Notes: a model not told the origin generated them from the sequence alone. DNA of 64,000 nt from an uncultured Verrucomicrobiae bacterium (GCA_963756875.1 CAVWPA010000003.1:672001-736000); one strand, 5' to 3'. Shown: positions 1 to 58,627, counted from the stretch's first letter. A program made the numbers and translations.

Positions 1-401
1 CGGTACTGCAACGTCGCGTCGATCAGTTCCGGCGAAATGTCGCGCAACGGCGTCCAGACGCGGAATTTTTGATCGGCGCTCAGCGTCACGCGCAGCAATT
101 TGCCGCTGCGGTCGCGCACGCTTTGTGAAAACGAAATTCCGTCGAGCAAGGGCGGCCTGGGGAGCGCGAGCCAAATTGCGGCAACGAATGTGGAGAGAAA
201 CACGAACGCGCGAAGGGTCTTCGCGATCCATTCCGGGGAGCGCACGCGCCTCGCGTGCCGTGTTCGGCGCCCTCGCCGAACATGCTGGAACGCATCACGC
301 CACAGGTTTTTGATGAGTAAAGAGGCCGCTGGCGGGGGCGCCGGCGGCAGCACGCGAGGGCGCGTGCGGTCCCCAAACAGTGCTCGCGCGACGATATTCA
401 T
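1..401 (-). CDS. pbpC: Penicillin-binding protein 1C, N-terminal part (runs off the window start)
   Basis: Translated by hand from ATG 401, which overlaps the a2M stop (ATGA). A TM helix is followed by SVRDRSGKLLRVTLSADQKFRVWTPLRDISPELIDATLQY, typical of PBP1C, and the gene lies directly downstream of a2M. The N-terminus carries an in-frame palindromic element. Confidence 0.85.
   Translation of the reverse strand, partial: MNIVARALFGDRTRPRVLPPAPPPAASLLIKNLWRDAFQHVRRGRRTRHARRVRSPEWIAKTLRAFVFLSTFVAAIWLALPRPPLLDGISFSQSVRDRSGKLLRVTLSADQKFRVWTPLRDISPELIDATLQY
235..374. repeat. REPIN-like palindromic element, family A copy 1 (in frame in pbpC)
   Basis: GGGGAGCGCACGCGCCTCGCGTG ... CACGCGAGGGCGCGTGCGGTCCCC inverted arms, each with a second internal hairpin. 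Confidence 0.9.
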
Positions 402-3400
402 TCTGTAACCGTGATGTTGCCGCCCATGCCTCGTCCCTTGACGTTGCGATCGTACATCGACTGGGCGAACACGGGCGGCACGACAAACTTTCCGCGATTG
501 CACGATTTGATTTGGTAATCGATCTCCATCGCTTCCGGCGGCGCAGTCACAAAGAAGACTGCGCGGTCCTCGCGAAGATCGACATAATCTGCGCCCCGGA
601 TTGAAGAGACGCCCCCGCGCAGAGAGGTGTCGACGATCTCGAAGCCGCCGGGCAACAGATCGACAACTGCCACGTTCGTCACTGCCGCATGTCCCACACT
701 GCGGACATGAAGGCGCACATGAATCGGCTCGCCGAGATGCGTTTGGGTGACCGGTTTGTTGTCTTTACCGAGAAGCTCACGATAAACTTCCAAACCGTTC
801 GTAAGCGCTTCTTTCGGAACTTCCCGGTCAAAGCCGGCTTCAATCACCTGGAAGAAAACACCGGGGCCGTTGATGCGTCCCGAAGTTTCAAAACGCAACC
901 GGACCGCATCGCGGGAAAAGCCCGACTGTTCCATTAGTTTGGCTCCCCTGGCGAGGCGAACTTCCTGATTGTCGGCACGGACTTCGGTGATGGCGAGGTC
1001 GGGCGGATTTTCCGCGATCGTGTGCGAGTAGGCTTTCAGCGCGCGCACTGCGTACGCGGCCGAGAGCGTGTCGAACGAGCCTTCGCCGATCGGCGCAAGA
1101 ATATTTTTAAATTCTTCGCCTGAAACTTTTCGGAGCCGCTCGGGAAATTCGCGGGCGAGCACGGCAATGTATTGTGAATCCTCACCAAGCGGCTGGAAGA
1201 AATCGCCGCACTGCCGCGATGCTGCGGTGCCGATTTTGTATTTGCCGATCAGAGCCTCTGCCTCGGCGTCCTTGTGCAGAAGGTGGAGTGCGCCCGCGAG
1301 ATAGACTCCCGTGATATCGTTCTGCCAGCTGTCCCGCTGATTTTTGTCGAGATAATCGCGCAGATTGAGAATGTAATTGGTGGTGATGACGCCTTGCTGC
1401 GTAAGCACGTAGATGGCGTAAGCGAGTGTCCGCGCATCCGAAAGATTCGACGGCTCGCGCGTAACCATCTTTTGCAGATCGCGCAGACCGCTCGCGAACA
1501 TGTCGGGTGGTGGAACAAACCCGGCGGCCTTCGCGTCGCTTAGGAAATCCATCGCGTAAACCGAGACAAAACTGATTCCAGCCCCTGGCTCGGGTCCCCA
1601 GTAACCGAAGGCGCCCTGATCGTTTTGGCGTCGTCGCAGAAGGCCGAACGTGTATTCGAGTTGTTTATCCACCTCGGCGCGGTTCAAGCCAAAATCGGCT
1701 TCGTTAGCCAGCATCAGCCGGCAAAATGCGCCGCTGGTGACCTGTTCGCTGCAACCGTATGGGAATTTCTTCAGATACGCGTCGAGCCCATGAGCGAGTC
1801 CAAGCGGAACGGACGAGACAACTGCGTCGCGCTTGGAAAACTCGGGACGCATCGCGCGCTTGATCGCTATATCCACGCTGCCTTTAAAGCTGCCGCCACG
1901 CACATCAGTCATGTAGGGGACCGGCGGCCGAATGCTGAGCGTGGCGCGGCGTTTCGTCTGTGATGTAGCCGTTCCGGCCGCATCGCCGCGCGCGATGCTT
2001 GCGATGAAAGTGATTTCGCCCGAACCGAGTTTGTCGTTGGCTCGAAACTTGAAGACTACGCTTTGTTCGTGTCCTTCCGCGATGCGCAGAATTTGTGACG
2101 ACGACCCCAGCGTCGACAGCCCCGAAATTATCGGGGCTCGCGAATCCGTTCGGAGCTGCTCGTTGGTTTCCGCGCGCACCTCGACCTCGGCGTTTGCGCC
2201 GGAGCCTTCGACATTATTGGCCACGGTCACTCCGGCTTCGAATTCGTCTCCCGGCGCCGCCAGGACGGGAACGCTTGGGGTAATTACAAACGGCCCGCGA
2301 ATGAGCACATTGCGCTCGGCCGATCCGGTGGCTTCATTCGAAACCGCGACCGCCATGATCTTCAGTGTGCCGTCGAAGAAATCGGGAACATCGTAAACTA
2401 CGTCTCGCGCCGTCGTGTCGGCGTCGAGGATGCCCGACCAGAACACGACCGGTTTGTCGGTCATTCGCTTAAATGGATTGAGCCGTTGAACATCGCCGCC
2501 GCCACCGAACGCCGAGACGGACCGCAACAGCGAAAATTCCGGAATGATGAGATCGACAATTTGCGAGGTCTCAACTCGCAGCGCGCATTTCCGGAAATAG
2601 AAGCCGAGCGGATCGGGCGTTTTGTAATTGGTCACCTGAAGGATTCCCTGATCCACGGCAAAGATGACGATTTTGCCCGGTCGATCTGTTTTGTAGGTGA
2701 TTCGCAGCGGCTCGCCAGGCTTCGCGGTTGCCGGCGCGTCGATATCGATTTCGAGACGGCGCTTTTCCATGTTGGCGGTGAATGGAACGACGCCGTAACT
2801 CAGCGGGCTCACGAAGATTTCCTTTGCGTCGAGCGCGCGCACGAACGTCACGTTGACGTAGCCGCTGCCTTCAAAATTATCCGGAACGCGAATGTGCTGG
2901 ATGCTGCTGGCGGCGCTCGCCTGGAACCATTGATGCGCGTAAACCCTGTCGCGCTCGACCGTGATTAATCCGCTGCCCGCATACGGCGCTACGATGCTGA
3001 CCGCGATCTCGTCGCCGCTGTTGTATTGCTTGCGATCCAGCTTCACTTGCAGCTCGGCATTTCTTTCGAGCGAACGAGAAACAGCGCCGTGACCGGCCAC
3101 ACAAAATTCCAATTTTGCGAGGCGTCGATTTTGATCGTCGCGCAGTTCGAGGACATAGGTGCCCGGTTGTTGTGTCGGCAGCGTGTAATGAAATCCGTTA
3201 GCAGGAACGGCAATTTTCTCCGTGGTCGCGACGCGCTCTTTTAAGACCGATTCATACGCGAAATTGCCGTTTCGTTGTTTGGTCAGGACCGACACGTATT
3301 CCTGCGCGAGGACATTGAGCGTGATGTTTTGGACGGCGATGCGGTTGAGTTGCGGATCGACCGCGATGAATTCGAGCGCACGCGGCTTACCCATATCGAT

Positions 3401-6292: not shown

Positions 6293-6364
6293 GAGAGGAA
6301 TACGGCGGCCCCGCGGAAATCTTTCAGAAAATCGCACGCCCGCCTCGCAGGCAGCCGCAGAGGG

Positions 6365-6457: not shown

Positions 6458-6530
<73 letters not shown>

Positions 6531-6588
6531 GCGCGAGCGGGCAAAAGATTACATCCGACGATGATGCGGGCAAGAGGAGATGAATGAA

Positions 6589-6718
6589 AAGCACCAAGCA
6601 CCAACCTCCAAGCACCAGAGAAATTCCAATCACCAAATTCCAAACATCATCGCGCGACTCCTCTTGGTGTTTGAATTTTGGTGTTTCTCTAGATGTTGGA
6701 GCTTGGAGCTTGGATGTT
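6589..6718. repeat. Heptamer-built inverted repeat, AAGCACC family copy 1
   Basis: Tandem AAGCACC/AACCTCC/AAATTCC units with central AGAGAA, mirrored by TTGGTGT/TTGGAGC units; second copy at 26044-26170. Confidence 0.85.
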
Positions 6719-6723: not shown

Positions 6724-7698
6724 TTACATCGGAAATTCAAAGGTTTCGCCGATTTCGCGGAGAGCAATACGTTCCGGCTCGTCGCGCAGCGCGGCTTCGA
6801 AACGCTCGATCGGCTCGCGGAATGGTTCGAAGCTCAGCTGGAATGTTTGATGGTGCATGGGGAGGATGAATTGCGCGCCGGCATCGTTTGCCATTTGCAC
6901 AGCTTCTTCGGGGCTGGAATGAGTTCGAATCCACGGGTTGTAACATCCGATGGATATGGCGGCGAGATCGATGGGCCCGAAACGGCGCAACTCGGCAAAC
7001 GTATCCGTGAATGCGGTATCGCCGCCAAAAAGAATGCGCCGGCCTTCGCGCTCGATGAGATAGCCGTTGTAGCCGCGATAATCGTCGTGCTGCATTCTGG
7101 CGCCCCAGTGTTTTACCTGGACCGCAACAATGTCGACCTTACCGGCTGACGTTTCCACAGACTCGCGCTGGTTCCATTGAAGCTCGGTAATGTCGCGAAA
7201 TCGTGCCCAGCGGAGCAAATCGCGAGTGCGCGGAGCGGTGATCACTTTGGTGGAGCGATTGAACTCCGCCTTCGCCCGGCTACGGCGCGACAGGCGATGA
7301 AGCGTTCGCAAATCGAAATGGTCGAAGTGCGCGTGCGATAAAAGAATGACGTCGATTTTCGGCAGCTCGCGAACGGTGAGCGCCGGCGCGGTGAGACGTT
7401 TTGGGCCGATGGTGAAAAGAAATGGAATCCGGATTCCGCAGCGCGAGAACAGGACGGGGTCGATAAGAATTTTGATGCCGAAGAAATTAACGAGCACGGT
7501 GGCATGACCGAGCCACGCCGCCGTGACATGCGCGTCACTCCACTCCGTCGGATCCGGTTTGGCGAACGCAGGTGCGATCGGACTCCGACTTTTAAGTATT
7601 GCCTCGCGCCAGAGATAAGAAATCCATCGGCGCACACGCGGGTTTCGATAACTGGGTTGTACAGATCCATCCCTCATCGCACCGCCCGCCTCGCGCAT
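6724..7698 (-). CDS. MBL-fold metallo-hydrolase (RomA/NAPE-PLD-like)
   Basis: WLGHATVL, IDPV, SHAHFDHFD, GDT and PMHH motifs; start uncertain (7698 or 7677). Confidence 0.88.
   Translation of the reverse strand: MREAGGAMRDGSVQPSYRNPRVRRWISYLWREAILKSRSPIAPAFAKPDPTEWSDAHVTAAWLGHATVLVNFFGIKILIDPVLFSRCGIRIPFLFTIGPKRLTAPALTVRELPKIDVILLSHAHFDHFDLRTLHRLSRRSRAKAEFNRSTKVITAPRTRDLLRWARFRDITELQWNQRESVETSAGKVDIVAVQVKHWGARMQHDDYRGYNGYLIEREGRRILFGGDTAFTDTFAELRRFGPIDLAAISIGCYNPWIRTHSSPEEAVQMANDAGAQFILPMHHQTFQLSFEPFREPIERFEAALRDEPERIALREIGETFEFPM
7265..7294. repeat. 30-bp mini-element, in frame in the MBL hydrolase (LSRRSRAKAE)
   Basis: TCCGCCTTCGCCCGGCTACGGCGCGACAGG, 23/30 identical to 11684-11713. Confidence 0.7.
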
Positions 7699-8010
7699 CG
7701 CAGAATTGTTGCACGAGAATGAATGCGTTGTTTCCCGTGATCTGCCACCCAAATCGCTGCGGTCTTGGGGTGTTCCGCGGCGATATAAGGCGGCGCCGTA
7801 CAATTTCGAAAGTCGAAAGCTCTTCGCGATCTGATGGTTGAACGAAGCGCGCCGCGGCTTGTCGAATTCGGGGTGCCGCCCAACAGCCGCGCTGCGAAAT
7901 TCTTGAACTGCTTGATTTTAAAGCCGGACTCGCGGGTGCCGCCCAAATTCTACTGCGCACCGTGCCGTTCCGCTTTTGCTTTAGTCCATGCGGCCCAGCG
8001 TGATTTCCTA

Positions 8011-14978: not shown

Positions 14979-15016
14979 ATCTGTAGCGGCGATAATCGGC
15001 TCGACATTGTTCGGTA

Positions 15017-15084
15017 AATTGTAGGGCAGGCGCGTCGCCTGCCATGACTGGAGGGCCGGCAACCGGAGCGGTTGCCCTACAATT
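15017..15084. repeat. REPIN-like element, GTAGGGCA family copy 1
   Basis: AATTGTAGGGCAGGCGCGTCGCCTGCC ... GGCAACCGGAGCGGTTGCCCTACAATT; inverted homolog at 52508-52573. Confidence 0.9.
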
Positions 15085-15100
15085 CAAACAGCGCACGTTA

Positions 15101-15941
15101 ATGCGGCATCAAATCGAACATTAAACATCGCATATCAAAGATTCCAGTCGCACTGACTGTCGCCGGATCGGACAGCAGCGCTGGAGCCGGCATCCAGGCC
15201 GATCTCAAGACATTCGGCGCGCTCGGGGTCTACGGCCTGACCGCCGTTACGTGCGTTGTCGCGGAAACGCCGGGGAACGTTTCCCGAATTGAACCGGTCG
15301 GCGCCGAAATGGTGCGCGCACAAATCGATGTTCTCGCCAGGAACTTCCCGATCTCTGCCATCAAGACCGGGTTACTCTATTCGGCGGACATTATTTCCGT
15401 CGTCGCGGGTGGAATCGTCGATCTCGTCCGCAAAATCGGTAATCGAGTGCCGCTCGTCGTCGATCCTGTGATCGTTGCGACCAGCGGCGATCCACTTCTG
15501 CAAAAAGACGGGATCGAGATTTACCAAAAGGAACTGTTTCCGCTTGCCGCGCTGATTACACCGAACCTCCTCGAAGCGGAAAGATTTCTCGGCGAACCAG
15601 TGCGCGACTTGAAATCGATGCGTCGCGCGGGCAAAGAGTTGGAGAAGAAATTTCGAACCGCGATTCTTCTCAAGGGCGGGCATCTGGCGGGCGATCGGGC
15701 CGTGGATCTTCTTTTTGACGGCGGAAAGATTGTCGAATTCGCCGGTCCGTTTGTGCGGGACGTGGCGACGCACGGCACCGGCTGCACTTATTCGGCCGCC
15801 ATCACGGCCGGTCTGGCGGGTGGTTTATCGCTGCAGGATTCAATCGCCCGCGCCAAAAAGTTTGTGAGTAGTGCGATCGCGCGGCGATTCCGTTGGGAAT
15901 CGGCGTCCGGAAAGAACCTCGATGCCCTGAATCACTTGTAG
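15101..15941 (+). CDS. thiD: Hydroxymethylpyrimidine/phosphomethylpyrimidine kinase (start region apparently frameshifted)
   Basis: Frame is open upstream of the tracked start: VALTVAGSDSSAGAGIQADLKTF; also ITPNLLEA and THGTGCTYSAAI. The nearest ATG (15101) is one frame off, within a heptamer repeat. Confidence 0.9.
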
Positions 15942-26043: not shown

Positions 26044-26170
26044 AAGCACCAAGCTCCAATACCCAAGCACCAGAGAAGCACCAAACTCCAATATTCAAAT
26101 CGCTCGCGAGCGTTTTTGGAGTTTGGTTATTGGGATTTCTCTGGAGCTTGGTGCTTGGAATTTGGTGCTT
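26044..26170. repeat. Heptamer-built inverted repeat, AAGCACC family copy 2; supplies the lgt C-terminus and stop
   Basis: AAGCACCAAGCTCC...CAGAGAA ... TTCTCTGGAGCTTGGTGCTTGGAATTTGGTGCTT. Confidence 0.85.
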
Positions 26171-27101
26171 TGCCTAGTTGCTTTGGATACGTTGGCCGCA
26201 TTTTGGCCGCAACGATGAACGCAATGCCAATCGCGATGAGAAAGAACGAAAAGAATTGGCCGCGGGTGAACCCGGCAATCAATGCGGCATCCGGCTCGCG
26301 GAAATTTTCGATCACGATCCGGAAGATCGCGTAGCAGATAAAGAAGAGTCCGGTCAAAACGCCGTTGGGTTGCCGCGTTCGCGTTCGCACGAACCAGAGG
26401 ATTGCGAACAAAACAATGCCTTCGAAAAAGGCCTCGTAGAGTTGCGATGGATGTCGCGGAGTCAGGATGGAGCGTAAAATCTGTTTCACCTGCGGTTGCC
26501 GATGCACTGCGGCGATAATCGCATCCGGCGTTGTGAGAGCGGGACTGATTCGGATGCATTCCATGACCGCGCGATCCGCTTCCGCCGGATGGTCGAGCAA
26601 TTCTTTTGGGAACTGCATGGCCCACGAAACGTGCGTAACGCGCCCGTAAAGCTCGCCGTTGATAAAGTTGGCGCAGCGACCAAAGAACAGACCGATCGGC
26701 GTGGTAACGACCAGATTATCGCCCAGATTCAGCCAGGAAAGTTTGTGGCGGTGCGCAAAATAAAGGCTGAAAAGCAAAACACCGATCATGCCGCCATGGC
26801 TCGACATTCCGCCTTCCCAGACACGCAGGATTGACAGCGGTTCGCGCAACATCTCGGGCTTGTAGAAGAGCACGTAACCGAGACGGCCGCCGATGATCAC
26901 GCCGAAGAGCGCAACACCGGTGACGAAATCGGCCACCTTTTCGACGGGCAAATCCGCGTAACCGCGCTTCGCCAGAACACGAAGGAAAAGATAGCTGGCG
27001 ACAAACGCCAGCACATACGCCAGGCCGTACCAGCGCGGACCAACGTTGTCCCACAGGCGGAAGATCAACGGATTGAGATCGTGCAGATAGTAAGCGAGCA
27101 C
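26127..27101 (-). CDS. lgt: Prolipoprotein diacylglyceryl transferase
   Basis: RWYGLAY, GGMSSHGG, GRCANFINGELYGR, HPSQLYEA. Confidence 0.97.
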   Translation of the reverse strand: MLAYYLHDLNPLIFRLWDNVGPRWYGLAYVLAFVASYLFLRVLAKRGYADLPVEKVADFVTGVALFGVIIGGRLGYVLFYKPEMLREPLSILRVWEGGMSSHGGMIGVLLFSLYFAHRHKLSWLNLGDNLVVTTPIGLFFGRCANFINGELYGRVTHVSWAMQFPKELLDHPAEADRAVMECIRISPALTTPDAIIAAVHRQPQVKQILRSILTPRHPSQLYEAFFEGIVLFAILWFVRTRTRQPNGVLTGLFFICYAIFRIVIENFREPDAALIAGFTRGQFFSFFLIAIGIAFIVAAKMRPTYPKQLGKAPNSKHQAPEKSQ

Positions 27102-30100: not shown

Positions 30101-33100
30101 TTCGCCGCCTTCGTCGCCGGCCTCCGGGCCGAGATCGACGATGTAATCGGCGCATTTAATCACCTCGAGATTGTGTTCGATGACCACAATGGAATGACCG
30201 CGATCGACCAGCCGTTGAAAAAGATGCAACAGGATCGCGACGTCATCGAAATGCAATCCAGTGGTCGGCTCGTCGAATATGAAAAGGCTTCCAATTGGCG
30301 ATCTTCCTGTAGTGGCAGCCGTGCCGGCTGCGCCATTGTGACTTGCAGGCGACACGCCTGCCGCTACAGATTTTTCCGCAAGATGGCGCACTAATTTCAG
30401 GCGTTGCGATTCGCCGCCGGAAAGCGTGTTGAGCGGCTGGCCCAGCCGTAAATAGCCGAGTCCCACCTCCTCAAGCACGGCGAGTGGAGTTGACAATGCT
30501 TTCTTCTCGCCGATCTGCGCGAAGAAACGGATCGCTTCGCTTACCGTCATTTCGAGCAGATCGTGGATCGATTTGCCGTGAAGCTGGATTTTTAGCACGT
30601 GAGACTGAAAACGGCGGCCTTCGCATTCGGCACAACGTACGTAGAGATCGCTGAGAAATTGCATCTCGATTTTTTCGAAACCGGTGCCGGAGCAGCGCTC
30701 GCAACGTCCGCTGCCGGAATTGAACGAGAACGCGCTCGCCGTCAGGCCCTGCGACATCGCTTCCGGCTGCGCGGCGAACAGTTCGCGCACCCGATCATAC
30801 AAACCAAGATACAAAACCGGAGTGGAACGCGGCGTGCGCGCAAGTGGGGATTGATCGACCATCACCACTTCGTTGATGCGATGTGCGCCGGTGACGCTTT
30901 TGCAGGCGCCCGGTTCCTGATCCAGCGATTGACCCTTCGCGCGCAAAAGGTTCCGGTAAAGAACCTCGTGAACCAGCGTCGATTTGCCGGAACCGGAAAC
31001 GCCGGTTACGCATGTAAAATTTTTGAGAGGGAGATCGACATCGATCTTTTTCAGATTGTGCTCACGCGCGCCGCTGATTCGGATTGATGTCGTCGATTTC
31101 CGTCTCCGTTTCGGGACCGGAATCGATTTGCGGCCGGAGAGGTAATCGAACGTGAGGGATTGGGGAGCGCACGCGCCCCGCGTGCTGGCGATCGCGCCCT
31201 CGCGATCGCGAACTTTTTTCGATTGCGCAGCCTTGGGAGTCGTTACGTCTGAGGCATTTCGGCGAGGGCGCCGAAACGTGCACGCGAGGGCGCGTGCGCT
31301 CCCCGGATTTCCGTTATCGCGCGCAAGGAAATCGTTCAGCGGTCCGCTCCAAACCAGTTCGCCGCCCAGCTCGCCGCGGCCGGGCCCGAGGTCGATTAAA
31401 TTATCGGCGGCGCGGATGATTTGCTCTTCGTGTTCGACTACGAGCAACGTGTTGCCTTTATCGCGAAGATTGTGCATGACGCGGACGAGCCGGCCGACAT
31501 CGCGCGGGTGCAAGCCGACGCTCGGTTCGTCCATGACGAAAAGCGTGTTCACCAGCGAAGTGCCGAGACACGTCGTCAGATTTACGCGCTGCACTTCGCC
31601 GCCGCTCAATGTGCGCGTCGAACGATCGAGCGTCAGGTAACCGACGCCGACTTCGCATAAATAATTCAGACGCGCGCAAATCTCTCCGCGCAACATCTCT
31701 GTTGTGGAATCGTTAGGCGGAATTTCGATTCCCGACAGAAGATTGCGCGCCTCGGAAATGGAAAGCGCGGCGAATTCGGGAAGAGTGAACTGTAGCGGCG
31801 CTCTATGAGCGTCGCTTGAATTCATCCGACGGTCATAGACCGCCGCTACAGAAGAAATCTTATGATTGAGCGTTTCGGGCTGGAAGCGCGTGCCGTGGCA
31901 CTTCGGGCAGGTGGTGTATGCGCGATACCGGCTGAGCAAAACGCGCACATGCATTTTGTAAGTTTTGCTCTCGAGCCAGCGGAAAAATCCGCGCACGCCA
32001 TACCAGCGATCGTCTTCGTAATCTTCTTCCGTGTGGTCGCCGCGCTTTTCGCCACTGATGACAAAATCCTGGTCGACTTTTGGCAATTCTTCGAAAGGAA
32101 GATGGATGTCGATCTCCTCGCGCGCGCAGGCGCGAAGCAGGTCCTTTTGCGATTCGCCGAATTCTTCTCCTCGAAAAACGCGAACCACTCCCTGGGCGAT
32201 GCTCAAACTGCGGTCCGGGATGGCCTTGTTCAGATCGATCGCAATGGTGCGGCCAAATCCGCGGCATTCCGGACAGGCGCCGAGCGGATTGTTGAAACTG
32301 AAAAGGCCCGGCGTGGGCGGCCGGATATCGGTGTCGCAATGCGCGCAATGCCAGCCGGTGGAAAAGGGAAGCTGAGAGTTGTTAGTTGAGAGTTGAGAGC
32401 CCTCTTGAGTGAGCGCGATGACATTTACCTTGCCTTTGCCGAATCGCAGCGCGGTCTCGAGCGCTTCGGTCAAGCGCGCGCGATTCTCTGGCGCGATCGT
32501 GACGCGATCTTGAATGACCTGGACGCGCGCGCCCAATCGCAACTTCTTTGGAGCGGCGTCAGCGCGAACGATCTTGTTATCGATCCAGACGCGCAGATAG
32601 CCCTGTTGCTGTAGAAAATCGAAAAAGATGCGCGGCTCTGTCTTGGCGGGAACCGAAACCCAAAACGTGATCAGCGCGGTCTGGAGAGCGCACGCGCCTC
32701 GCGTGCTAACGCCAGTCCGGCTCGGACTTCCGGCGCCTTCGCCGGAAAGTTCCATAACAGGCGCCGGGGGCGCATTATTTTTTGATGAATGTGTTCGGCC
32801 GGGGCGCCGAACACTGCACGCGAGGGCGCGTGCGCTCCCCGGATGCGGCTGCGTCGTTTCCGTTTCCGCTGCGTATCCGAACGAGTCAAACACCTGATCG
32901 GCGATCGATTTGGCTGTTTCGGGGCGGATTTCGCGACCGCAGGTCGGACAAAAGGCGCGCGCGACTCGTGGCCACAACAGTTTCAAATAATCGTTGATCT
33001 CCGTCATCGTCCCGACGGTCGAGCGGGAACTCTTTACGGGATTCGATTGCTCGATGGCGATGGCGGGCGGAATTCCGCGGATCTCGTCTACGCGCGGCTT

Positions 33101-33364
33101 GTCCATGCGATCGAGGAATTGCCGCATGTACGGGCTGAACGTTTCGACGTAGCGACGTTGTCCCTCGGCGTAAACGGTCTGGAAGGCGAGGCTCGATTTT
33201 CCGCTCCCGCTTGGGCCGGTGACGACCGTCAATTTCCCCAGCGGGAGATCGACATCGATGCCTTTAAGATTGTTCTGACGCGCCCCGCGGATCTCGACGC
33301 AGGCGTCCGGGGCGACCTGGTTGACGCGATTTTTCTGAGTGACCTTCGAACCCACTGGAAACAA
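27172..33364 (-). CDS. uvrA: Double-length excinuclease ABC subunit A (~2060 aa; apparent +1 frameshift at ~28935)
   Basis: Four Walker A motifs ([32 protein letters not shown]), four LSGGE signatures, UvrA zinc fingers; two overlapping ORFs join if one C is removed. Confidence 0.93.
28024..28093. repeat. REPIN-like element, GGAGGGAC family, in frame in uvrA
   Basis: TGGAGGGACACGCTCTGTCGTGTCC ... GGACGCGACGGAGCGCGTCCCTCCA; encodes GGTRSVAS...DTTERVPP. Confidence 0.88.
29840..30023. repeat. REPIN-like element, family A copy 2, in frame in the uvrA inter-module linker
   Basis: GAGCGCACGCGCCTCGCGTG ... CACGCGAGGCGCGTGCGCTCCCC. Confidence 0.88.
30307..30369. repeat. REPIN-like element, GTAG(C/T)GGCAG family, in frame in uvrA
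   Basis: CTGTAGTGGCAGCCGTGCCGGCTGC ... GCAGGCGACACGCCTGCCGCTACAG; encodes SVAAGVSPA...AAGTAATT. Confidence 0.88.
31162..31304. repeat. REPIN-like element, family A copy 3, in frame in uvrA
   Basis: GGGGAGCGCACGCGCCCCGCGTG ... CACGCGAGGGCGCGTGCGCTCCCC; encodes GSARALAC...TRGACAPQ. Confidence 0.92.
31791..31850. repeat. REPIN-like element, GTAGCGGCG family, in frame in uvrA
   Basis: TGTAGCGGCGCTCTATGAGCGTCG ... CGACGGTCATAGACCGCCGCTACA; encodes VAAVYDRR...DAHRAPLQ. Confidence 0.9.
32371..32400. repeat. Heptamer tandem (GAGAGTT-type), in frame in uvrA ([10 protein letters not shown])
   Basis: GAGAGTT GTTAGTT GAGAGTT GAGAGC; related intergenic tandem at 36854-36882. Confidence 0.65.
32683..32840. 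repeat. REPIN-like element, family A copy 4, in frame in uvrA
   Basis: GGAGAGCGCACGCGCCTCGCGTG ... CACGCGAGGGCGCGTGCGCTCCCC. Confidence 0.92.
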
Positions 33365-36890: not shown

Positions 36891-37697
36891 ATGCCCGATG
36901 CCATCAACTTCGCAAAGCTCTGCGAAATCGTCGCGAAGCTGCGCGCGCCAGGGGGCTGCCCCTGGGATCGCGAGCAAACCCATGAATCGCTTCTGCCCGC
37001 GCTTATCGAAGAGGCTTACGAGGTGGCCGGAGCGGTAAGACAATCGGACGACGCAAATTTTCGCGAAGAACTCGGCGATCTTCTCCTGCTCGTGGTCATG
37101 AACGCCGAAATCGCGCGCGAGTCGGGTCGATTCGATATCGACAGTGTGATTCGCGAAGTGACCGAAAAACTGGTGCGGCGCCATCCCCACGTTTTCGGCA
37201 AGAGCGATGCGCGCGACAGCGGCGCGGTCTTGAAACAATGGGAAGCGATCAAGCGAGAGGAAAAGGCGGACTCCCATTATCTTGCCAGTTTGCCGAAAGC
37301 GTTGCCGGCACTGGTCCGCGCGCAGAAAGCACAAAACAAAGTCGCGCGCGTGAACTTTGATTGGAAAAAAATCGAAGATGTTCTCGCGAAGGTGGATGAA
37401 GAGCTGGCGGAAACGAAAGACGCGATTCAATCACAAGATGGACCGTCGATCGAGGATGAGATCGGCGATTTGCTTTTCGCCGTCGTGAATTTATCCCGCA
37501 AATGCAAGATCGATTCTGAGAGCGCGTTGCAAAAGGCGACCGACAAGTTTGTCGCGCGGTTTAACCGGCTGGAAGACGAACTTCGATCGCGCGGCAAGAA
37601 GCTGGGAGATGTGGATCTGGCGGAGTTGGATGAGATCTGGGAGGAGATAAAGAAGCGGAAAACGCCGAACGTCCAACGCCCAACGCCGAATGTCTGA
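36891..37697 (+). CDS. mazG: Nucleoside triphosphate pyrophosphohydrolase
   Basis: LRAPGGCPWDREQTHESL, EELGDLL, RRHPHVF, DEIGDLLF. Confidence 0.97.
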   Translation: MPDAINFAKLCEIVAKLRAPGGCPWDREQTHESLLPALIEEAYEVAGAVRQSDDANFREELGDLLLLVVMNAEIARESGRFDIDSVIREVTEKLVRRHPHVFGKSDARDSGAVLKQWEAIKREEKADSHYLASLPKALPALVRAQKAQNKVARVNFDWKKIEDVLAKVDEELAETKDAIQSQDGPSIEDEIGDLLFAVVNLSRKCKIDSESALQKATDKFVARFNRLEDELRSRGKKLGDVDLAELDEIWEEIKKRKTPNVQRPTPNV

Positions 37698-37736
37698 ATT
37701 CAGCATTGGACGTTCCACATTGGGCGTTCGGCGTTT
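37660..37736. repeat. Heptamer-built inverted repeat, AACGYCS family copy 1; supplies the mazG C-terminus
   Basis: AACGCCG AACGTCC AACGCCC AACGCCG ... TTGGGCGTTCGGCGTT. Confidence 0.85.
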
Positions 37737-37772
37737 GCTTCTGCTCTTGCTTTGGCGATATTGCCCGTCCCC

Positions 37773-51426: not shown

Positions 51427-52468
51427 GAGGGCTCCAATCGAGGACGATTTTGCCGGAGTTGCCGGATTTCATCAGCTCGATGGCTTCCTTGAACTGCGTG
51501 TAGGGAAACCGGTGAGTGATGACCGGCGAGATATCGAGGCCGGACTGGATAAGCGCGGTCATTTTGTACCAGGTCTCGTACATCTCGCGACCGTAAATTC
51601 CCTTGATGGTGAGCTGGTTGAACACAACCAGGTTCCAGTCGATCGCAGCGCTGCCGGGCATGATGCCTAACAAAGCGATTTTTCCGCCGTGAAACATATT
51701 CGGCAGGATGTCGGCGAATGCTTTTGGATTGCCGGACATTTCCAGCGCCACGTCGAAGCCTTCTTTCATGCCGAGTTTTTGCATGGCCTCCGGCACATTC
51801 TGGCTGCGCACGTCGACGCCCACAACATTCGGCGCCATTTTACGGGCGAGATCGAGACGATACGGATTGACGTCGGTGATAACGACGTGCCGCGCGCCGG
51901 CGTGCTGGCAAATCGGAATCGCCATGCAACCGATGGGCCCGGCGCCGGTGATGAGCACATCTTCGCCGACGAGATCGAACGTGAGCGCGGTGTGCACGGC
52001 GTTGCCCAGCGGATCGAAACAGGAGAGTACATCGAGCGAAATCGACGGATCGGCATGCCAGCAGTTTGATTGCGGGATGGCCACGAACTCCGCAAAGGCG
52101 CCGGGGCGATTCACGCCTACGCCCTGTGTATTTGGGCAAAGATGCCGCCGGCCGGCGAGGCAATTGCGGCAATGTCCACAGGTGATATGACCTTCGCCAA
52201 CCACGAGATCGCCGGACGCGAAGCCTTTGACATGGTCGCCCACGGAGTCGACCACGCCGACGAATTCATGGCCAATGGTCATGGGGACGGGGATGGTTTT
52301 CTGCGCCCAGGCGTCCCAGTTATATATATGTACGTCCGTGCCGCAGATCGACGTTTTCACGACGCGGATGAGGACGTCGTCGCCATCGGCCCTGGGAACC
52401 GGGACATCCTCGAGCCAGAGCCCCGGCTCGGCTTTCGCCTTCACCACGGCTTTCATCGTTTTCTGCAC
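51416..52468 (-). CDS. tdh: L-threonine 3-dehydrogenase
   Basis: [43 protein letters not shown]. Confidence 0.97.
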
Positions 52469-52507
52469 GACTGGAAGCTAGGCGAATCGGGAACGCAGGA
52501 AAACAGG

Positions 52508-52573
52508 AATTGTAGGGCAACCGTTCCGGTTGCCGTTATGCGGCTGGGCAGGCGACGCGCCCGGCCCACAATT
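52508..52573. repeat. REPIN-like element, GTAGGGCA family copy 2
   Basis: AATTGTAGGGCAACCGTTCCGGTTGCC ... GGCAGGCGACGCGCCCGGCCCACAATT. Confidence 0.88.
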
Positions 52574-52642
52574 GCGCTTCGGATTCAATCTCGCGTGCGT
52601 TCTCCTTGCACGGCGTATGATCATTGGAGATGATTCCGCTGC

Positions 52643-53557: not shown

Positions 53558-53585
53558 AGAGATGCGCTCTATAGCGGGAAACTTT

Positions 53586-53709
53586 GGGGAGCGCACGCGC
53601 CCCGCGTGTAGTCTCCGGCGCCCTCGACGGAGACATTTTTCCGGGGTGAGCCGCAAGGGCTTTTCGGCGAGGGCGCCGAAAAGAGCACGCGAGGGCGCGT
53701 GCGCTCCCC
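53586..53709. repeat. REPIN-like element, family A copy 5 (intergenic)
   Basis: GGGGAGCGCACGCGCCCCGCGTG ... CACGCGAGGGCGCGTGCGCTCCCC. Confidence 0.92.
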
Positions 53710-53734
53710 GGAAGCTCCGCGGCGAAAACTGTAC

Positions 53735-54991
53735 ATGAAACGCAAACGTGTTGTTGTTCTTGGCGCGACCGGGTCGATCGGGGAAAGCGCGCTAAAGGTT
53801 GCGCGCGACATTCCGGAACGGATGGAAATTGTCGGTCTGGCGGCGAACAACAACGCCGAAAAGCTGGCCAAGGCTGCAAACAAGGTGCGACCGCAAGCGG
53901 TTTGCCTTGGGAACGTAACGAAGATCGAGGCGTTGCGGGCGGCGCTTGAGTACGAGCCGCAGATCTTCGCCGGTGAAGAGGGACTGCGCGAGATCGCGTG
54001 CCTGACGAATGCGGACATGGTGCTGGTCGCAATTGTAGGCACGGGCGGATTGCGTCCCACGCTGGCTGCGATTGAAGCAGGCAAGGATCTCGCGGTGGCG
54101 AGCAAGGAGATTTTGGTGATGGCGGGCGAGATTGTGATGCGGGAAGCGCGCGAAAACGGAGTGCGTGTGTTGCCGGTGGACTCGGAGCACAATGCGATTT
54201 TTCAATGTCTGGAAGGCAAACGCCGAACGCCCAACGCCGAACGTCGAACGTCGAATGCAGAGAACGCGAGTCCGGTTCTGCCTTCGGCGTTGGATGTTGG
54301 ACGTTGGGCGTTGGACGTTTCTGATGTGAGAAGGATCATTCTCACCGCTTCGGGTGGTCCATTTCGCGAAACACCGCGAAAAGACTTTGATGCGATTACG
54401 GTGGAACAGGCCCTGAAGCATCCCACCTGGAACATGGGGCCGAAAATCACGATCGATTCGGCGACGCTTTTCAATAAAGGCCTCGAAATGATCGAAGCCC
54501 GGTGGCTTTTCGGGGTCGAAATGAAACGGGTGGAAGTGGTGATCCATCCGCAAAGCATCGTTCATTCGATGGTCGAATTTGTGGATGGCTCCACGCTGGC
54601 GCAGCTGAGTTACTCCAACATGTGTTTTCCAATTCAATATGCGGTCACCTGGCCGGAACGCGTGCCGAACAGTCTGCCGCCACTGGATTTTTCGAAATTG
54701 TCGAAGCTGGAATTTTTCACGCCCCGCTTTGAGGATTTTCCGGCGCTCAGCCTGGCGCGAAAGGCGGGCGAAACCGGAGGCACGCTGCCGGCGGTCATGA
54801 ATGCCGCGAACGAAGTCGCGGCCGCGGCGTTTTTGGAGCGACGGCTCCGTTTCCCGCAAATCTGGGAAACGGTCGAAAAGGTGATGGCCACGCACGCCAA
54901 CGTTGCGCAGCCGAATCTCGATGCCATATTGCGGGCCGATCAATGGGCGCGCGAGGAAGCGCTGAGATGCGTTAAATCGTTGAAACGGTAA
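53735..54991 (+). CDS. dxr: 1-deoxy-D-xylulose 5-phosphate reductoisomerase
   Basis: LGATGSIG, PVDSEHNAIFQ, LTASGGPF, HPTWNMGPKITIDSAT. Confidence 0.97.
   Translation: MKRKRVVVLGATGSIGESALKVARDIPERMEIVGLAANNNAEKLAKAANKVRPQAVCLGNVTKIEALRAALEYEPQIFAGEEGLREIACLTNADMVLVAIVGTGGLRPTLAAIEAGKDLAVASKEILVMAGEIVMREARENGVRVLPVDSEHNAIFQCLEGKRRTPNAERRTSNAENASPVLPSALDVGRWALDVSDVRRIILTASGGPFRETPRKDFDAITVEQALKHPTWNMGPKITIDSATLFNKGLEMIEARWLFGVEMKRVEVVIHPQSIVHSMVEFVDGSTLAQLSYSNMCFPIQYAVTWPERVPNSLPPLDFSKLSKLEFFTPRFEDFPALSLARKAGETGGTLPAVMNAANEVAAAAFLERRLRFPQIWETVEKVMATHANVAQPNLDAILRADQWAREEALRCVKSLKR
54218..54320. repeat. Heptamer-built inverted repeat, AACGYCS family copy 2, in frame in dxr
   Basis: AACGCCG AACGCCC AACGCCG AACGTCG AACGTCG ... 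TTGGATG TTGGACG TTGGGCG TTGGACG. Confidence 0.88.
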
Positions 54992-55055
54992 CTCGTTCAA
55001 GCGGCCAGCCCCGGCGGTCGGCCACTGTTTACTCATCGCTAATCACCAGTCATTC

Positions 55056-56720
55056 ATGAGCATTTTGTTCCACGGCGCGCGTTTCCTCTTTATCCTGCTC
55101 GAAGTTCTGGTTCTCTTTAATCTGCTCATCGTGGTGCATGAGCTCGGCCATTTTCTGGCGGCCCGCTGGCGCGGGCTCTATGTCGAAAAGTTCGCGATCT
55201 GGTTTGGCAAGCCGCTTTGGAAAAAAACGATCAATGGCGTCCAATACTCGTTAGGGACGCTGCCTTTTGGCGGGTTCGTTGCCGTGCCGCAGCTGGCGCC
55301 GATGGACATTATCGAAGGCAAAGCAGACGTCGATCGCGCGAAATTGCCGCCAATTTCAGTGCTGGACAAGATCATCGTGGCGTTTGCCGGGCCGCTGTTC
55401 AGTTTCGGCCTGGCCGTGGTGTTCGCGGTCGTCATTTCAGTGGTGGGTCGTCCGGTGAGTGAATCGGAGTCCACCACCACCATCGGATACGTCATGCCGG
55501 ATTCGCCGGCGTCGCGCGCCGGGTTAGAAGCCGGCGACAGGATTCTATCCGTTGACGGACACCAGGTTTCCCGTTTTGGCGGGATGGGCGACGACAGCAT
55601 TCAGTGGCAGATTGTGCGCAGCGAAAAGGAAACAATCCCAATCGCGGTCGCGCGCAAGGTGGACGACACGACGAAGAAATTGACTGTTGAGGCGAAGCCG
55701 ATTGTCCCGCCGACCAAGCCGTGGATGCGCAAGGCATTGCGGCAGATTGAAATTGTTCCGGCCGAAACACCTTTGGTGGCAAAAGTGCAGCCGGATAGCC
55801 CGGCTGCGAAGGCGGGTCTGAAGCCGAACGACGTGATTACCGCGATCAACGGCCAGCCCCTCTACCATATTCTTGGCCTTGCCGATTTTATTCGCAAATA
55901 CCAGGGCCAGCCGCTGACGCTTACGGTGGAACGAGGCGGGGAGCCGGTTCGGCTTCCGTTCGATCCCGGTTATCCCAAAGTCGCGTCGGTGTTCAAGGAC
56001 AGCCCGGCCGATCGCGCCGGTTTGAAACCGGGCGATGCAATCATCGCGGTCGACGGCCAGAAAATGACGAGCACGCTGGCGATCTCCGATTACATCTCCA
56101 AACATGCGGCGCAGGCGATTTCCCTGACGTTCGAGCGCGACGGCGTGCAACATACGGTGAAGGTGAAGCCGGAAGCCCCCGTAGGCGAAACCACCCCTCG
56201 CATCGGAATTTACTGGGATGAAGATTACGGAATTGTCCTGGATTCCTATGGCAAGCTCGCCGTCGTGCATCCGAATCCGATCGAGCAAGTCCGGGCCGCG
56301 ACGTTGTCGATCTTCAACACGATCGGCGCCATCGCTTCGCCCAAGTCGGACGTGAAACTGCAGCATATGAGCGGGCCGGTGATGATGCTGCGCATCTATT
56401 ATGTCATGTTCGAGAACAAGGAGGGGTGGCGAATGGCGCTTTGGTTCAGCGTCGTGCTGAATGTGAACCTGGCGCTGCTGAATCTGTTGCCCATTCCGGT
56501 TCTCGATGGCGGCCATATCATGCTCGCGGTGATCGAAGGCGTTCGCCGCCGGCCGGTGAATACCCGCGTCCTCGAAGTGGTGCAGACCGCGTGTGCCGTC
56601 CTGATTATCGGGTTCATGGTTTATATCGCTTTCTTCGATGTCGAAGACCTTTTCGGCGGGAAGGGGAGGCCGAGATTCGTGCCAAAGGCGCCGCCGGCTC
56701 AATCGGGACAAAAGCAGTAG
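55056..56720 (+). CDS. rseP: RIP metalloprotease RseP (three PDZ-like repeats)
   Basis: [20 protein letters not shown]. Confidence 0.95.
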
Positions 56721-56766
56721 CGCGGCAGCGTTGCGCGGCCGTTTTCATTCCGTAAACTTTGTGGCG

Positions 56767-58627
56767 GTGAACTATTGCGATAACCCATTGGTTTATCAGC
56801 GCCGGAAGACGCGTGAAGTGCGTGTGGGCCACGTCGGTATCGGCGGGGCCAACCCCATCCGTGTTCAATCGATGATCACGTGTGACACGATGGATACGGA
56901 AAGTTCCATCCAGCAAACGGTGGAGCTGGCGGAAGCCGGCTGCGAAATAGTGCGCATCACTGCGCCGACAGTGAAGGATTCCCGCAATCTGGAGCACATC
57001 GTAAAGGGTTTGCGCGAGCGCGGCTGCGACGTGCCAATCGTGGCCGATATTCATTTCAAGCCCGAAGCGGCCATGGAGGCGGCCCGGTGGGTCGATAAAG
57101 TCCGGATCAATCCGGGCAACTATGCCGACTCGAAGAAATTCGTGATCCGGGAATATACGGACGAGCAGTACACTTCCGAACTCGCACGCATCCGCGAGCG
57201 ATTCACGCCACTGGTTGAGCTCTGCAAGAAGCGCGGCATTGCCATCCGCATCGGCACCAATCACGGCTCGTTGAGCGATCGCATTCTTAATAGATACGGC
57301 GACACACCCCTCGGGATGGTGGAGAGCGCTCTCGAATTCGCGCGCATCGCGCGCGACCTCGATTATCACGCGTTTGTTTTCTCGATGAAGGCCAGCAACC
57401 CGAAAATCATGATCGCTGCCTATCGCCTTTTGGTCGCTCGACTGAACGAAGAGGGCCCGGATTGGAATTATCCGGTCCACCTGGGGGTAACCGAAGCCGG
57501 CGAAGGCGAAGACGCACGAATCAAAAGCGCCATCGGAATCGGCTCGCTGCTGGCGGACGGAATCGGGGACACCATCCGCGTCTCGCTCACCGAGGACAGC
57601 ATTCACGAGATTCCCGTAGCGAAAGCGCTGATTGAGTGCGGAATGCGGAGTATCGATTGCGAATTGCAGCACTCCGCAATCGACACTCCGCAACTCCGCA
57701 ATCTCGTTCGACCCCTTCTCGTATCAGCGACGCGCCAGCGAGACGATCGCAGTAGCGGGAATCGGTGAGCCGGGTGAAACCGTCAAACTCGGCGGCGAAG
57801 AATTGATCCGGGTCGTCGTCAGGCAGGCAAATTTCGAAAAGGTCGCGCACAAAATCGACAAAATGGGCGATTACAAGCCGGAGATTGTTTACGAGAACGC
57901 CAGCGTCAGGGAAATCGATCCGCGTGACAGGGAGGCGATTGCCCTGTTGAACGAAGGCGCGGAACCGCAGTTCGTTACGGTCCGAGACGATGTCGATCTG
58001 CCCATGATCACGGCGTTTCGTCTGCTGGCCGCGAACCTGGCGCCACGGCACCCAATTTTGTTAAAGGATATTTTGAATTGCAGGGCGTCTGTGTCAGACG
58101 CCGGCCAGAGAGATGGCGTTTCACAGAAACGCCCTGCAAATTTTCTGGACACTCTTCTCATCGCGTCCACAAACATCGGCTCGCTGTTGTGCGATGGGAT
58201 TGGGGACGCCGTCCTGGTGCAAGGCGAAGAAGCTCCGGGGCAGGCGTTGCGGCTCTCTTATAATATACTACAGGCCGCGGGGTCGCGGATTTTCAAAACC
58301 GACTACGTGGCCTGCCCTTCGTGCGGGCGGACGTTGTTCAATTTGCAGACGACGACGGCGCGTATCAAAGAGGCAACCTCGCATCTGAAAGGCGTCAAAA
58401 TTGCGATCATGGGTTGCATCGTAAATGGCCCGGGAGAAATGGCGGACGCCGATTTTGGTTATGTTGGCGGCGCGCCGGGCAAAGTGAATCTCTACGTCGG
58501 CAAGACGCCGGTAAAGTTCAATATCCCGGAAGCGGAAGCAGTTGATCGACTGAAGGATTTGATCCGCGAACACGGCAAGTGGGTCGAGCGTGCGATGCAA
58601 CCGGCTCCGGCCGAGATGCCCGCATAA
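56767..58627 (+). CDS. ispG: HMBPP synthase, long form (apparent +1 frameshift at 57692/57693)
   Basis: [34 protein letters not shown], then ACPSCGRT and [10 protein letters not shown] in the next frame. Confidence 0.93.
57631..57704. repeat. Heptamer-built inverted repeat (GCGGART family) inside ispG
   Basis: GCGGAAT GCGGAGT ATCGATT GCGAATT mirrored by ACTCCGC AATCGAC ACTCCGC AACTCCGC. Confidence 0.85.
58078..58139. repeat. REPIN-like element (G[T/C]AGGGCG family), in frame in ispG
   Basis: TTGCAGGGCGTCTGTGTCAGACGCC ... GGCGTTTCACAGAAACGCCCTGCAA; encodes CRASVSDA...GVSQKRPA. Confidence 0.88.

Follow-up and report, generated by a model that had tools for sequence, protein, structure and literature searches.

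The repeats that populate the window (the whole stretch of DNA analysed, 64,000 nucleotides) very probably belong to a multi-family REP/REPIN-RAYT system, accompanied by heptamer hairpin families without a transposase, and some of their copies lie in frame inside core proteins. The genome contains six matches to Y1_Tnp (PF01797)/RAYT. Four of these genes are flanked at both sides by a single family (family D, family A twice and family 10), a fifth is flanked at one side only, by family 14, and the sixth has merely a 15-nt repeat fragment nearby. Because five of the six RAYT (Y1/HUH) genes are thus flanked by one family each, as the preliminary description had proposed looking for, we assign the repeats to this class with high confidence. 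Furthermore, the elements are short imperfect palindromes with many copies per genome, and inverted REP pairs that make a larger hairpin (REPINs) are present. The earlier view that they are mobile DNA and not protein motifs is borne out by GTAG-type tags, by the RAYT flanks and by polymorphism at orthologous sites.

The host genome (2.69 Mb) is placed near Candidatus Udaeobacter (Verrucomicrobiota, Chthoniobacterales); the source bacterium is a free-living soil inhabitant. The repeats of the window are real and far above chance. When the window was compared with its own genome (blastn), 21 segments had at least three non-self matches, with a maximum of 77 per position. A 15-mer census returned 1177 repeated intervals genome-wide, and Louvain clustering of 499 intervals gave families of 71, 62, 52, 50, 37, 35, 22, 21, 13, 12, 10 and 9 members. 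The window holds about 19 composite palindromic elements from at least nine families that recur genome-wide; the more than 25 elements from about a dozen families described previously are reached only by counting single REP arms. All ten window elements that were folded form strong hairpins (z -3.5 to -8.9), equalled by none of 200 shuffles for nine of them and by one of 200 for the tenth. Most families, read directly, carry a stem-adjacent GTAG, GTGG or GGAG tag:

Family E, CTGTAGCGGCGG, GTAG-type tag
Family C, TTGTAGGGCAAC, GTAG-type tag
Family 6, GGTAGGGACGGC, GTAG-type tag
Family 14, CTGTAGCCACCGG, GTAG-type tag
Families 9 and 11, TTGTAGGGCGTC, GTAG-type tag
Family A2, GGTAGCGCACGCG, GTAG-type tag
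Family D, CTGTGGTGGCAG, GTGG variant
Family A, GGGGAGCGCACGCG, GGAG variant

The same direct reading found no GTAG tag in heptamer hairpin families 0 and 2, and in the two largest families of heptamer hairpins (71 and 52 copies) this tag and an adjoining RAYT are both lacking. Across the heptamer families, the hairpin arms are made of tandem 7-nt units (AACGCCG, AAGCACC, TGCGGAT and GAATGAC in this genome). Heptamer repeats are also known from cyanobacteria, as the STRR heptanucleotide repeats. A heptamer unit is frame-neutral, since 21 nt yield 7 aa.

Eleven elements of the window are securely intragenic (seven in uvrA, two in ispG, one each in dxr and an MBL-fold hydrolase). The preliminary description had listed at least 12 coding copies with the frame apparently kept; the one in pbpC is plausible only. 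Intragenic copies are predicted to lengthen their proteins by 8-65 aa at variable loops, linkers and termini. The most heavily invaded gene is uvrA:

27172..33364, minus strand: uvrA as a fused double gene (UvrA-UvrA); reading through gives about 2063 aa
28024..28093, minus strand: family 10 REPIN (GGAGGGACACGC...), in frame, within the second half of the fusion, about 11 aa added
29837..30029, minus strand: family A REPIN, in frame, sited where a linker joins the two UvrA halves
30307..30370, minus strand: family D REPIN (CTGTAGTGGCAGCC...), in frame, about 16 aa added
31157..31310, minus strand: family A REPIN, in frame, 51 aa added between residues 617 and 620 of PDB 3zqj
31789..31856, minus strand: family E REPIN (CTGTAGCGGCGG...), in frame, its peptide being VAAVYDRR
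32378..32401, minus strand: short GTTGAGA-repeat remnant, in frame, 8 aa
32680..32846, minus strand: family A REPIN, in frame, about 63 aa added

A 1-nt frame break at about 28935 (an extra C in GTACCTGG) lies outside all of these elements. Insert-free forms of the protein (1842-1920 aa) occur in genomes G010, G022, G024, G021 and G030. The G000 uvrA carries 180 aa extra in ten segments at seven sites, and other relatives have inserts of their own in the same alignment columns, among them inserts of 5-24 aa at the site of the GTTGAGA remnant. The remaining secure copies are found in three genes:

53699..54991, plus strand: dxr
54216..54320, plus strand: AACGCCG-heptamer hairpin, in frame in dxr, with AIFQCL before it and ILTASGGPF after it
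56638..58627, plus strand: ispG (GcpE), in two frames in the present assembly
57637..57702, plus strand: TGCGGA-repeat hairpin, ispG variable site 1
58078..58139, plus strand: family 11 REPIN (TTGCAGGGCGTC...), ispG variable site 2, in frame
6724..7803, minus strand: MBL-fold hydrolase (Lactamase_B_2), hosting one REP
7265..7294, minus strand: single 30-nt REP unit of family 12, in frame in the hydrolase, adding LSRRSRAKAE

The dxr hairpin (-62.7 kcal/mol) amounts to an insertion of 96 nt (32 codons) relative to a 69-nt state in four relatives; six of 11 relatives lack the insert and the other five have other lengths or families. The hydrolase REP corresponds to a clean gap of 10 aa (30 nt) in two orthologues and three more distant relatives. 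Clean in-frame gaps of the kind predicted beforehand were obtained in dxr, uvrA, the hydrolase and lgt; some relatives instead have other families in the loop concerned. By eye, the dxr and hydrolase junctions (two sites only) have no obvious target-site duplication of the sort expected of a MITE derived from a DDE insertion sequence. At ispG, both variable sites are occupied by different families in different genomes, the site-2 element being common to four of 21 aligned relatives. The single-nucleotide error suspected in one ispG copy was located at the site-1 hairpin, whose right arm exceeds the left by 1 nt; the break falls between 57636 and 57653 and is mended by removing 1 nt. Split ispG loci are present in three of 79 relatives.

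The other elements of the window lie between genes or at their ends:

230..380: family A REPIN (GGGGAGCGCACGCGCC ... GGCGCGTGCGCTCCCC), lying between the A2M stop (398) and the membrane helix of pbpC
6588..6718: AAGCACC-heptamer hairpin of family 0, extragenic
15016..15086: family C REPIN (TTGTAGGGC...), upstream of thiD
26044..26171: AAGCACC-heptamer hairpin, overlapping the end of lgt
37655..37741: family 2/F hairpin of AACGCCG heptamers, located between genes or at the end of one
52506..52576: family C element that precedes tdh, whose start (52468) is 38 nt away
53584..53713: family A REPIN, where cdsA (ends 53557) gives way to dxr

The pbpC element, in a gene on the minus strand, is flanked by a positionally conserved start Met and membrane helix and probably codes for about 50 aa of N-terminal tail. 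The family 0 hairpin begins 6 nt past the stop codon of the MBL hydrolase (6724-6726). Elements had also been thought to supply the termini of several genes. This is the case for lgt (26127-27101, minus strand), which has its stop codon and last 12 or so amino acids within the element. At tdh and thiD the element precedes the gene; the one at thiD contains stops in the thiD frame and is noncoding there. No member of a repeated family was present at the mazG and tolB termini. Compared against relatives, the lgt and hydrolase elements are polymorphic for presence at orthologous sites.

Genome-wide, 45 of the 394 elements of the 12 largest families (11%) are internal to well-supported ORFs (an ORF of at least 50 aa with a positive coding score on both sides of the element). 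Of the other 349, 145 lie within 40 nt of a gene 3' end, 98 are close to a 5' end and 106 are in other places; these shares are approximate, as the codon-usage ORF picker is crude and overlooked the second part of both uvrA and ispG. Colonisation of protein loops, as originally proposed, therefore holds for a minority of copies: with 349 of 394 not internal, coding insertions are something that the lineage puts up with and does not favour. NCBIfam models named 25 of the 32 hosts outside the window, including MutS, MutL, MutY, UvrB, DnaE2, DnaX, FtsK and SMC as well as AlaRS, Tgt, TilS, RimO, RNase R, MetH and ThiC. By role, ten of 29 named hosts act in DNA repair, replication or segregation and seven are RNA-modification or translation enzymes. 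Selfish hairpin DNA steadily supplies essential enzymes of a highly abundant soil group with new loops, with repair and replication proteins struck repeatedly. In practice, the insertions inflate protein lengths and confuse gene callers and completeness estimates, and assembly frameshifts adjoin elements.

We propose that the system comprises short GTAG-type palindromes, mostly as inverted doublets, and RAYT genes bracketed by their own families, with heptamer-arm hairpin families, for which no transposase was identified, sitting alongside. Copies would spread by RAYT-type single-strand transposition; presence and family turnover at orthologous sites differ among relatives (dxr, uvrA, ispG, the MBL hydrolase and lgt). 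Selection would purge gene-breaking insertions, and the survivors within genes would be in frame, stop-free and confined to permissive loops, inter-domain linkers and termini, so that the same few permissive sites would be repeatedly hit or retained, by different families in different genomes. Repeated use of the same loops could also reflect a target preference and not selection alone. The surviving copies may be translated as inserts of 8-65 aa that later shrink through internal deletions; open frames and dN/dS point to this translation. Family A would be especially suited to such a life, being nearly stop-free and having one preferred phase (GSARA...). Nine of its ten host-orientation units read alike (GSARA/GSARV in eight, WGARA in one), and 5.18 of its six frames are open, compared with 3.87 in shuffled sequence and 3.62 in random stretches of the genome. 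This same phase is used where the free-standing RAYT gene reads across the REP that precedes it. Two observations that count against the proposal are the frame broken by one ispG element in the present assembly and the two largest heptamer-hairpin families, which have no GTAG tag and no RAYT beside them.

The metH gene of the host genome contains a complete REP-RAYT-REP cassette in frame, which is common to genome G017. The nested RAYT has the HUH motif PDHVHIL and the Tyr motif YRYICRNP and scores 72.8 bits with the NCBIfam RAYT model, below the 80-bit cut-off. Its dN/dS is 0.05, compared with 0.05-0.12 for the MetH parts, and dS is 0.43-0.76 in the three REP-coded stretches (27-46 codons each) against 1.2-3.4 elsewhere. 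Among relatives, a RAYT is nested at one fixed site of recG in seven genomes from three families of the order, with the HUH and Tyr motifs retained in all seven homologues, and genome G004 has a nested cassette in alaS (AlaRS). The nested cassettes in metH, recG and alaS are under purifying selection. The nested transposase has no start codon of its own, and NCBIfam matches (E<=1e-10) included no intein family or Hint/splicing domain in the MetH-RAYT protein. With inteins and homing endonucleases, too, a conserved site in a housekeeping protein takes up the enzyme of a mobile element in frame, and the two are inherited together; unlike inteins, the RAYT insert in metH (or in recG and alaS of relatives) presumably stays in the mature protein. 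It is conceivable, at slightly less than even chances, that in Udaeobacter-type Verrucomicrobia REP-RAYT elements have adopted a translated, in-frame lifestyle, with the transposase produced only as an internal domain of MetH, RecG or AlaRS, much as a non-splicing intein, and with REPIN deletion derivatives seeding loops in other core proteins. If so, RecG or MetH would naturally harbour a HUH transposase that is expressed solely as a domain within them, and its supply would be tied to how DNA-repair and metabolic genes are expressed. Our literature search found no description of a RAYT living as an internal domain of host proteins; a phylogenomic study of RAYT-type enzymes states that proteins of unexpectedly great length were set aside as presumed fusions or annotation errors (PMC6006769).

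The inserts might instead be selected modules that alter the activity of repair and replication proteins, form mRNA hairpins that tune expression, or couple transposase supply to host expression. Di Nocera et al. (PMC3733652) put forward a mutator idea for REP-altered repair and replication proteins, and the host roles listed above echo the bias described there. Near-perfect hairpins also persist within genes, and the REP-coded parts of metH are conserved at synonymous sites. Yet close relatives differ in presence, length and family at a single site, as neutral or slightly harmful inserts would, and large multi-domain proteins have more linkers on offer; the low dS equally fits gene conversion or selection on the DNA as a transposase substrate. 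We regard selected modules as unlikely. Still less probable, to the point of being hard to sustain, is removal of the elements before or during expression, which would leave the proteins unaltered; excision could act on the RNA or, in some members of the population, on the DNA, or translation could bypass the element. Perfect hairpins with defined ends would suit such a process, as would a frame-breaking element in ispG, a gene that should be essential. However, precise excision needs no reading frame, whereas the remaining intragenic copies are all in frame and stop-free, with uvrA alone keeping seven open in one frame; there was also neither an intein indication (NCBIfam, E<=1e-10) nor a match to an Rfam family. 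The uvrA break outside any element and the split ispG loci of relatives point to assembly indels, which probably account for the frame breaks in both genes. The idea that low-complexity loops converged as proteins, or that the similarity is an assembly artefact, has next to nothing to recommend it, for although insert-bearing loops vary across bacteria and the assembly has indel errors, the same DNA families lie mostly outside genes, on both strands and in differing phases, form DNA palindromes, flank RAYT genes and behave alike in independent assemblies of many relatives.

A multi-family REP/REPIN-RAYT system has a close precedent. The preliminary description held that coding palindromes are mainly known from Rickettsia; this needs correcting, as in-frame REPs in core genes of Verrucomicrobia have been known since 2013 from Opitutus terrae, where multi-family GTAG REPs interrupt both uvrA genes, dnaE2, a DNA ligase and RNA helicases while keeping the frame, and family-specific "REPtrons" are described (Di Nocera, De Gregorio and Rocco, 2013; PMC3733652). 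The same paper records a REP in frame in uvrB of Rickettsia conorii and treats N-terminal cases as doubtful (PMC3733652). Likened by that description, the two systems share their phylum, coexisting GTAG families (including a GTGG variant like our family D), RAYT genes flanked by their own REP family, and in-frame REPs in uvrA, uvrB, dnaE2 and RNA-related enzymes. Our host differs in belonging to another order (Chthoniobacterales, Udaeobacter-like) and having a smaller genome, and in showing up to seven inserts within one fused double uvrA, in-frame hairpins built of heptamers, different families in one loop across genomes and a whole REPtron nested in frame in metH.

Rickettsia palindromic elements, as cited in two later papers, behave similarly as in-frame palindromes with a conserved phase in unrelated housekeeping genes and are thought to occupy structure-tolerant protein sites (Ogata et al., 2000; PMC10969869, PMC3733652). 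In contrast, RPE-1 has no known transposase and resides in an obligate intracellular alphaproteobacterium, whereas most families here pair with a RAYT in a free-living soil host. In Pseudomonas and Enterobacteria, REPIN-RAYT systems (Bertels and Rainey, 2011, and later work) also have inverted REP doublets as the replicating unit and vertically inherited RAYTs flanked by their REPs. They are described as extragenic, with single-copy, free-standing RAYTs, whereas the present genome has two family A RAYTs, one of them inside metH, and 11% of its counted elements are intragenic, an exception to extragenic location that has likewise been published for O. terrae (PMC3733652).

The genome from which the window derives, a Udaeobacter-like member of the Chthoniobacterales (2.69 Mb in 3 contigs, 57% G+C, estimated completeness 87.6%), carries mobile palindromic elements within the reading frames of conserved proteins. 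The preliminary description, which had many REP-like families colonizing protein loops, was essentially right in its observation and is supported in its interpretation. When the window was searched against its own genome (blastn), 21 segments had at least 3 non-self matches, with a depth of up to 77. A census of 15-mers with at least 4 occurrences, which replaced a 12-mer census discarded as too permissive, delimited 1177 repeated intervals covering 56,469 nt genome-wide. Louvain clustering, adopted in place of a single-linkage procedure that had chained 341 intervals into one group, sorted 499 intervals of 30-400 nt into 67 groups, the twelve largest having 71, 62, 52, 50, 37, 35, 22, 21, 13, 12, 10 and 9 members. 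Two kinds of sequence are found among the families: GTAG-type REP doublets (families A, A2, A3, C, D, E, 6, 9, 10, 11 and 14) and hairpins in which tandem heptamers form the arms (AAGCACC, AACGCCG, and the TGCGGAT and GAATGAC types). All 10 of the window elements that were folded formed strong hairpins (-37 to -93 kcal/mol; z -3.5 to -8.9). The repeats reported from the window are therefore real, but they amount to approximately 19 composite elements of at least 9 families and exceed the 25 originally claimed only if single arms are counted. The two largest heptamer families are represented in the window by the following hairpins:

6588-6718, heptamer hairpin
26044-26171, heptamer hairpin
37655-37741, heptamer hairpin
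54216-54320, heptamer hairpin

These two families (71 and 52 copies) have neither a GTAG tag nor a nearby RAYT, the Y1/HUH transposase paired with REPs.

Pfam matches agreed with the genes named in the preliminary description, both those for A2M, the MBL hydrolase, trpC, thiD, rnc, purD, tolQRAB and lgt and those for uvrA, pckG, the acrB-type pump, tdh, cdsA, dxr, rseP and ispG. The sole RNA gene found in the window was a tRNA-Thr (6458-6530), which alone reached the gathering score in an Rfam scan. Coding repeats unrelated to the palindromes were also present, as tandem units of about 100 nt in a DUF6600 protein (58852-61674) and as short periodic units in a TolA/TonB-like gene (24237-24436). 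Among named public genomes, the 80 ispG loci nearest to that of the window were all from Verrucomicrobiota except for one record labelled Dormiibacterota; most carried the labels Chthoniobacterales or Candidatus Udaeobacter and originated from soil.

Most of the in-frame elements of the window lie in uvrA:

27172-33364, minus strand, double uvrA, comprising a 1479-aa ORF (28925-33364) and a 630-aa ORF (27172-29064)

UvrA chains in the PDB match three stretches of the 1479-aa ORF, arranged as one complete UvrA and then the beginning of another, and relatives across the order have uvrA as a single open frame of approximately 1840-2080 aa. A regular expression for the uvrA junction matched no relatives at the DNA level, and protein alignment was used instead. 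In an alignment of 18 genomes, the insert-free proteins (G010, G022, G024, G021 and G030) were 1842-1920 aa long and the protein of the source genome, when read through, reached 2063 aa; its 10 extra segments add up to 180 aa and fall at 7 sites. Each of the 7 sites coincides with a repeat element, as expected from the seven in-frame copies first described. The same alignment columns are occupied by the relatives' own inserts, which total 167 aa in 6 segments in G012 and 96 aa in 6 segments in G001. One extra C at approximately 28,935 (GTACCTGG; relatives read ...SVLENEL...) separates the two ORFs; it is outside any element and is probably an assembly indel. The tandem UvrA-UvrA fusion, approximately 1845 aa without inserts, had a match in 30 of 31 genomes, spanning most of the order, and the same contig also has, at C3:533340-534461, a canonical uvrA-like gene distinct from it and approximately 52% identical.

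Elements were also seen inside dxr and the MBL hydrolase and at the end of lgt. Between the conserved AIFQCL and ILTASGGPF motifs of dxr there are 165 nt in the source genome vs. 69 nt in four relatives and 72 nt in one, and the additional 96 nt form a perfect AAACG...CGTTT heptamer hairpin, in agreement with the in-frame element that had been proposed. The insert was absent in 6 of 11 relatives; G017, G012 and G016 had shorter, partly one-armed copies of the same hairpin family, and in G011 and G013 this position was taken by two different families. Solved Dxr sequences likewise vary in length at this site. An AlphaFold model built from an 11-sequence alignment (mean pLDDT 58.9) had low confidence in the insert and also in residues 231-333 of the core, and the model is therefore uninformative about the loop. 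In the MBL hydrolase, the element that had been noted is a single 30-nt REP, which adds LSRRSRAKAE and is missing in both orthologues. The lgt product is approximately 12 aa longer than in four relatives and its stop codon falls inside an AAGCACC hairpin, bearing out the suggestion that an element supplies this terminus.

Other proposed cases were less clear or not supported. The family A element assigned to pbpC does lie between the membrane helix and a Met conserved in position relative to the end of A2M, but its coding status is at most plausible from the sequence; the pbpC tail in G012 is shorter than and different from that of the source genome. Elements thought to form the termini of tdh and thiD sit upstream of the genes, the one at thiD having stops in the thiD frame, and the ends of mazG and tolB matched no repeated family member (blastn-short, E ≤ 0.01). 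The conserved N-terminus of thiD (KIPVALTVAGSDSS...; 15135-15309) shares the frame of the called ORF, and no ATG, GTG or TTG occurs between the upstream stop and this N-terminus, which points to either a rare start codon or another sequence error.

Both elements reported in ispG are present, but the first carries a frame break in the assembly. The gene is in one frame in 72 of 79 relatives (594-783 aa, stop-to-stop); four of the others differ only upstream of the conserved start and 3 of 79 are split. In the source genome the frame changes in the interval 57636 to 57653, within a TGCGGA-type hairpin in which the right arm exceeds the left by 1 nt, and removal of one base would restore the frame. 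An unrelated 1-nt break in uvrA, together with the low completeness of the 3-contig assembly, makes an assembly indel the likely cause in ispG as well. The sequencing runs listed comprised one weak DNA run (share 0.09) and no RNA run; the DNA reads gave scattered short contigs, mostly on repeats and none across the break. Relatives have an AACGCCG half-element or other sequences at this first site. At the second, a family 11 REPIN (two REPs in inverted orientation) is common to the source genome and four of the 21 aligned relatives; others have a GAATGAC-type element or, in 5 of 21, no extra segment.

Across the genome, the twelve largest families comprise 394 elements. Of these, 45 are internal to ORFs that continue for at least 50 aa, with a positive coding score, to either side of the element; another 329 are traversed by an open frame whose flanks are weak, and 20 are closed in all six frames. 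By crude gene calls, 145 elements lie no more than 40 nt from a 3' end, 98 are close to a 5' end and 106 are in other places. Internal copies beyond the window occur in 32 ORFs, 25 of them named by NCBIfam. The hosts include MutS, MutL, MutY, UvrB, DnaE2, DnaX, a PolB-like protein, FtsK, SMC, AlaRS, Tgt, TilS, RimO, RsmE, RlmI, RNase R, MetH, ThiC, ArgJ, PDH-E2, GGT and others. Seven of the 32 had no NCBIfam match, and at least one of these overlaps rimO on the opposite strand and is probably spurious. By raw count, and with uvrA included, 10 of 29 named hosts function in DNA repair, replication or segregation. Nine of 10 family A units in host orientation share one reading phase (GSARA/GSARV in eight, WGARA in one). 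Family A leaves 5.18 of 6 frames open, whereas shuffled sequences leave 3.87 and random genomic ones 3.62; family E leaves only 2.06. For several species, Di Nocera et al. (PMC3733652) also report REPs in uvrB, dnaE2, recBCD and tRNA-related genes, and they put forward a mutator role as speculation; a 2024 MITE review (PMC10969869) recounts the Rickettsia case. The present genome is one more example, and a heavy one, of a phenomenon already published. A literature search of limited scope retrieved no paper on repeats in Udaeobacter and none on RAYTs nested in recG or metH.

The Y1 transposases anticipated in the preliminary description are encoded by six RAYT-like genes (PF01797). Four of these have copies of one family on either side (D, A, A and family 10), one has them on a single side (family 14), and the sixth has just a 15-nt fragment nearby; a RAYT flanked by its own repeat family is the arrangement known as a REPtron. 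The free-standing family A RAYT has its start upstream of the left REP, which it reads through. The other family A gene is a cassette nested in methionine synthase:

C2:23183-27799, metH with nested RAYT, a 1538-aa ORF with a cassette of ~215 aa at residues ~366-580

The complete REP-RAYT-REP cassette sits in frame between the homocysteine and folate domains. Both of its REPs belong to family A, its HUH and Tyr motifs are intact and it lacks a start codon of its own; the gene has a further REPIN in frame. The same cassette occurs in G017 (1514-aa frame) and, broken, in G004; in at least 11 other relatives the two MetH parts are joined directly. Between the source genome and G017, the RAYT part has a dN/dS of 0.05, and the MetH parts have values of 0.05-0.12. 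The three REP-coded stretches (27-46 codons each) have dN/dS of 0.26-0.37 and dS of 0.43-0.76 vs. 1.2-3.4 elsewhere, a low dS that fits constraint on the DNA itself. Further study is merited by this in-frame REPtron and by the heptamer hairpins.

Nested RAYTs flanked by translated REPs were also found in relatives, once in AlaRS (alaS of G004) and at one fixed RecG site in 7 genomes, which span 3 families of the order:

recG with nested RAYT in helicase domain 1, loci in G015, G003, G004, G016, G017, G022 and G025

A tblastn search did not find recG in the source genome (the best match was a 36%-identical helicase), which does not imply absence from a genome that is 87.6% complete. The RecG insert comprises approximately 230 residues in place of about 23 in T. 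maritima RecG, and the HUH and Tyr motifs are kept in all seven. The nested RAYT diverges in step with RecG, and more than 100 database proteins have the RecG-RayT architecture, many of them auto-named "RecG-like helicase/REP element-mobilizing transposase RayT".
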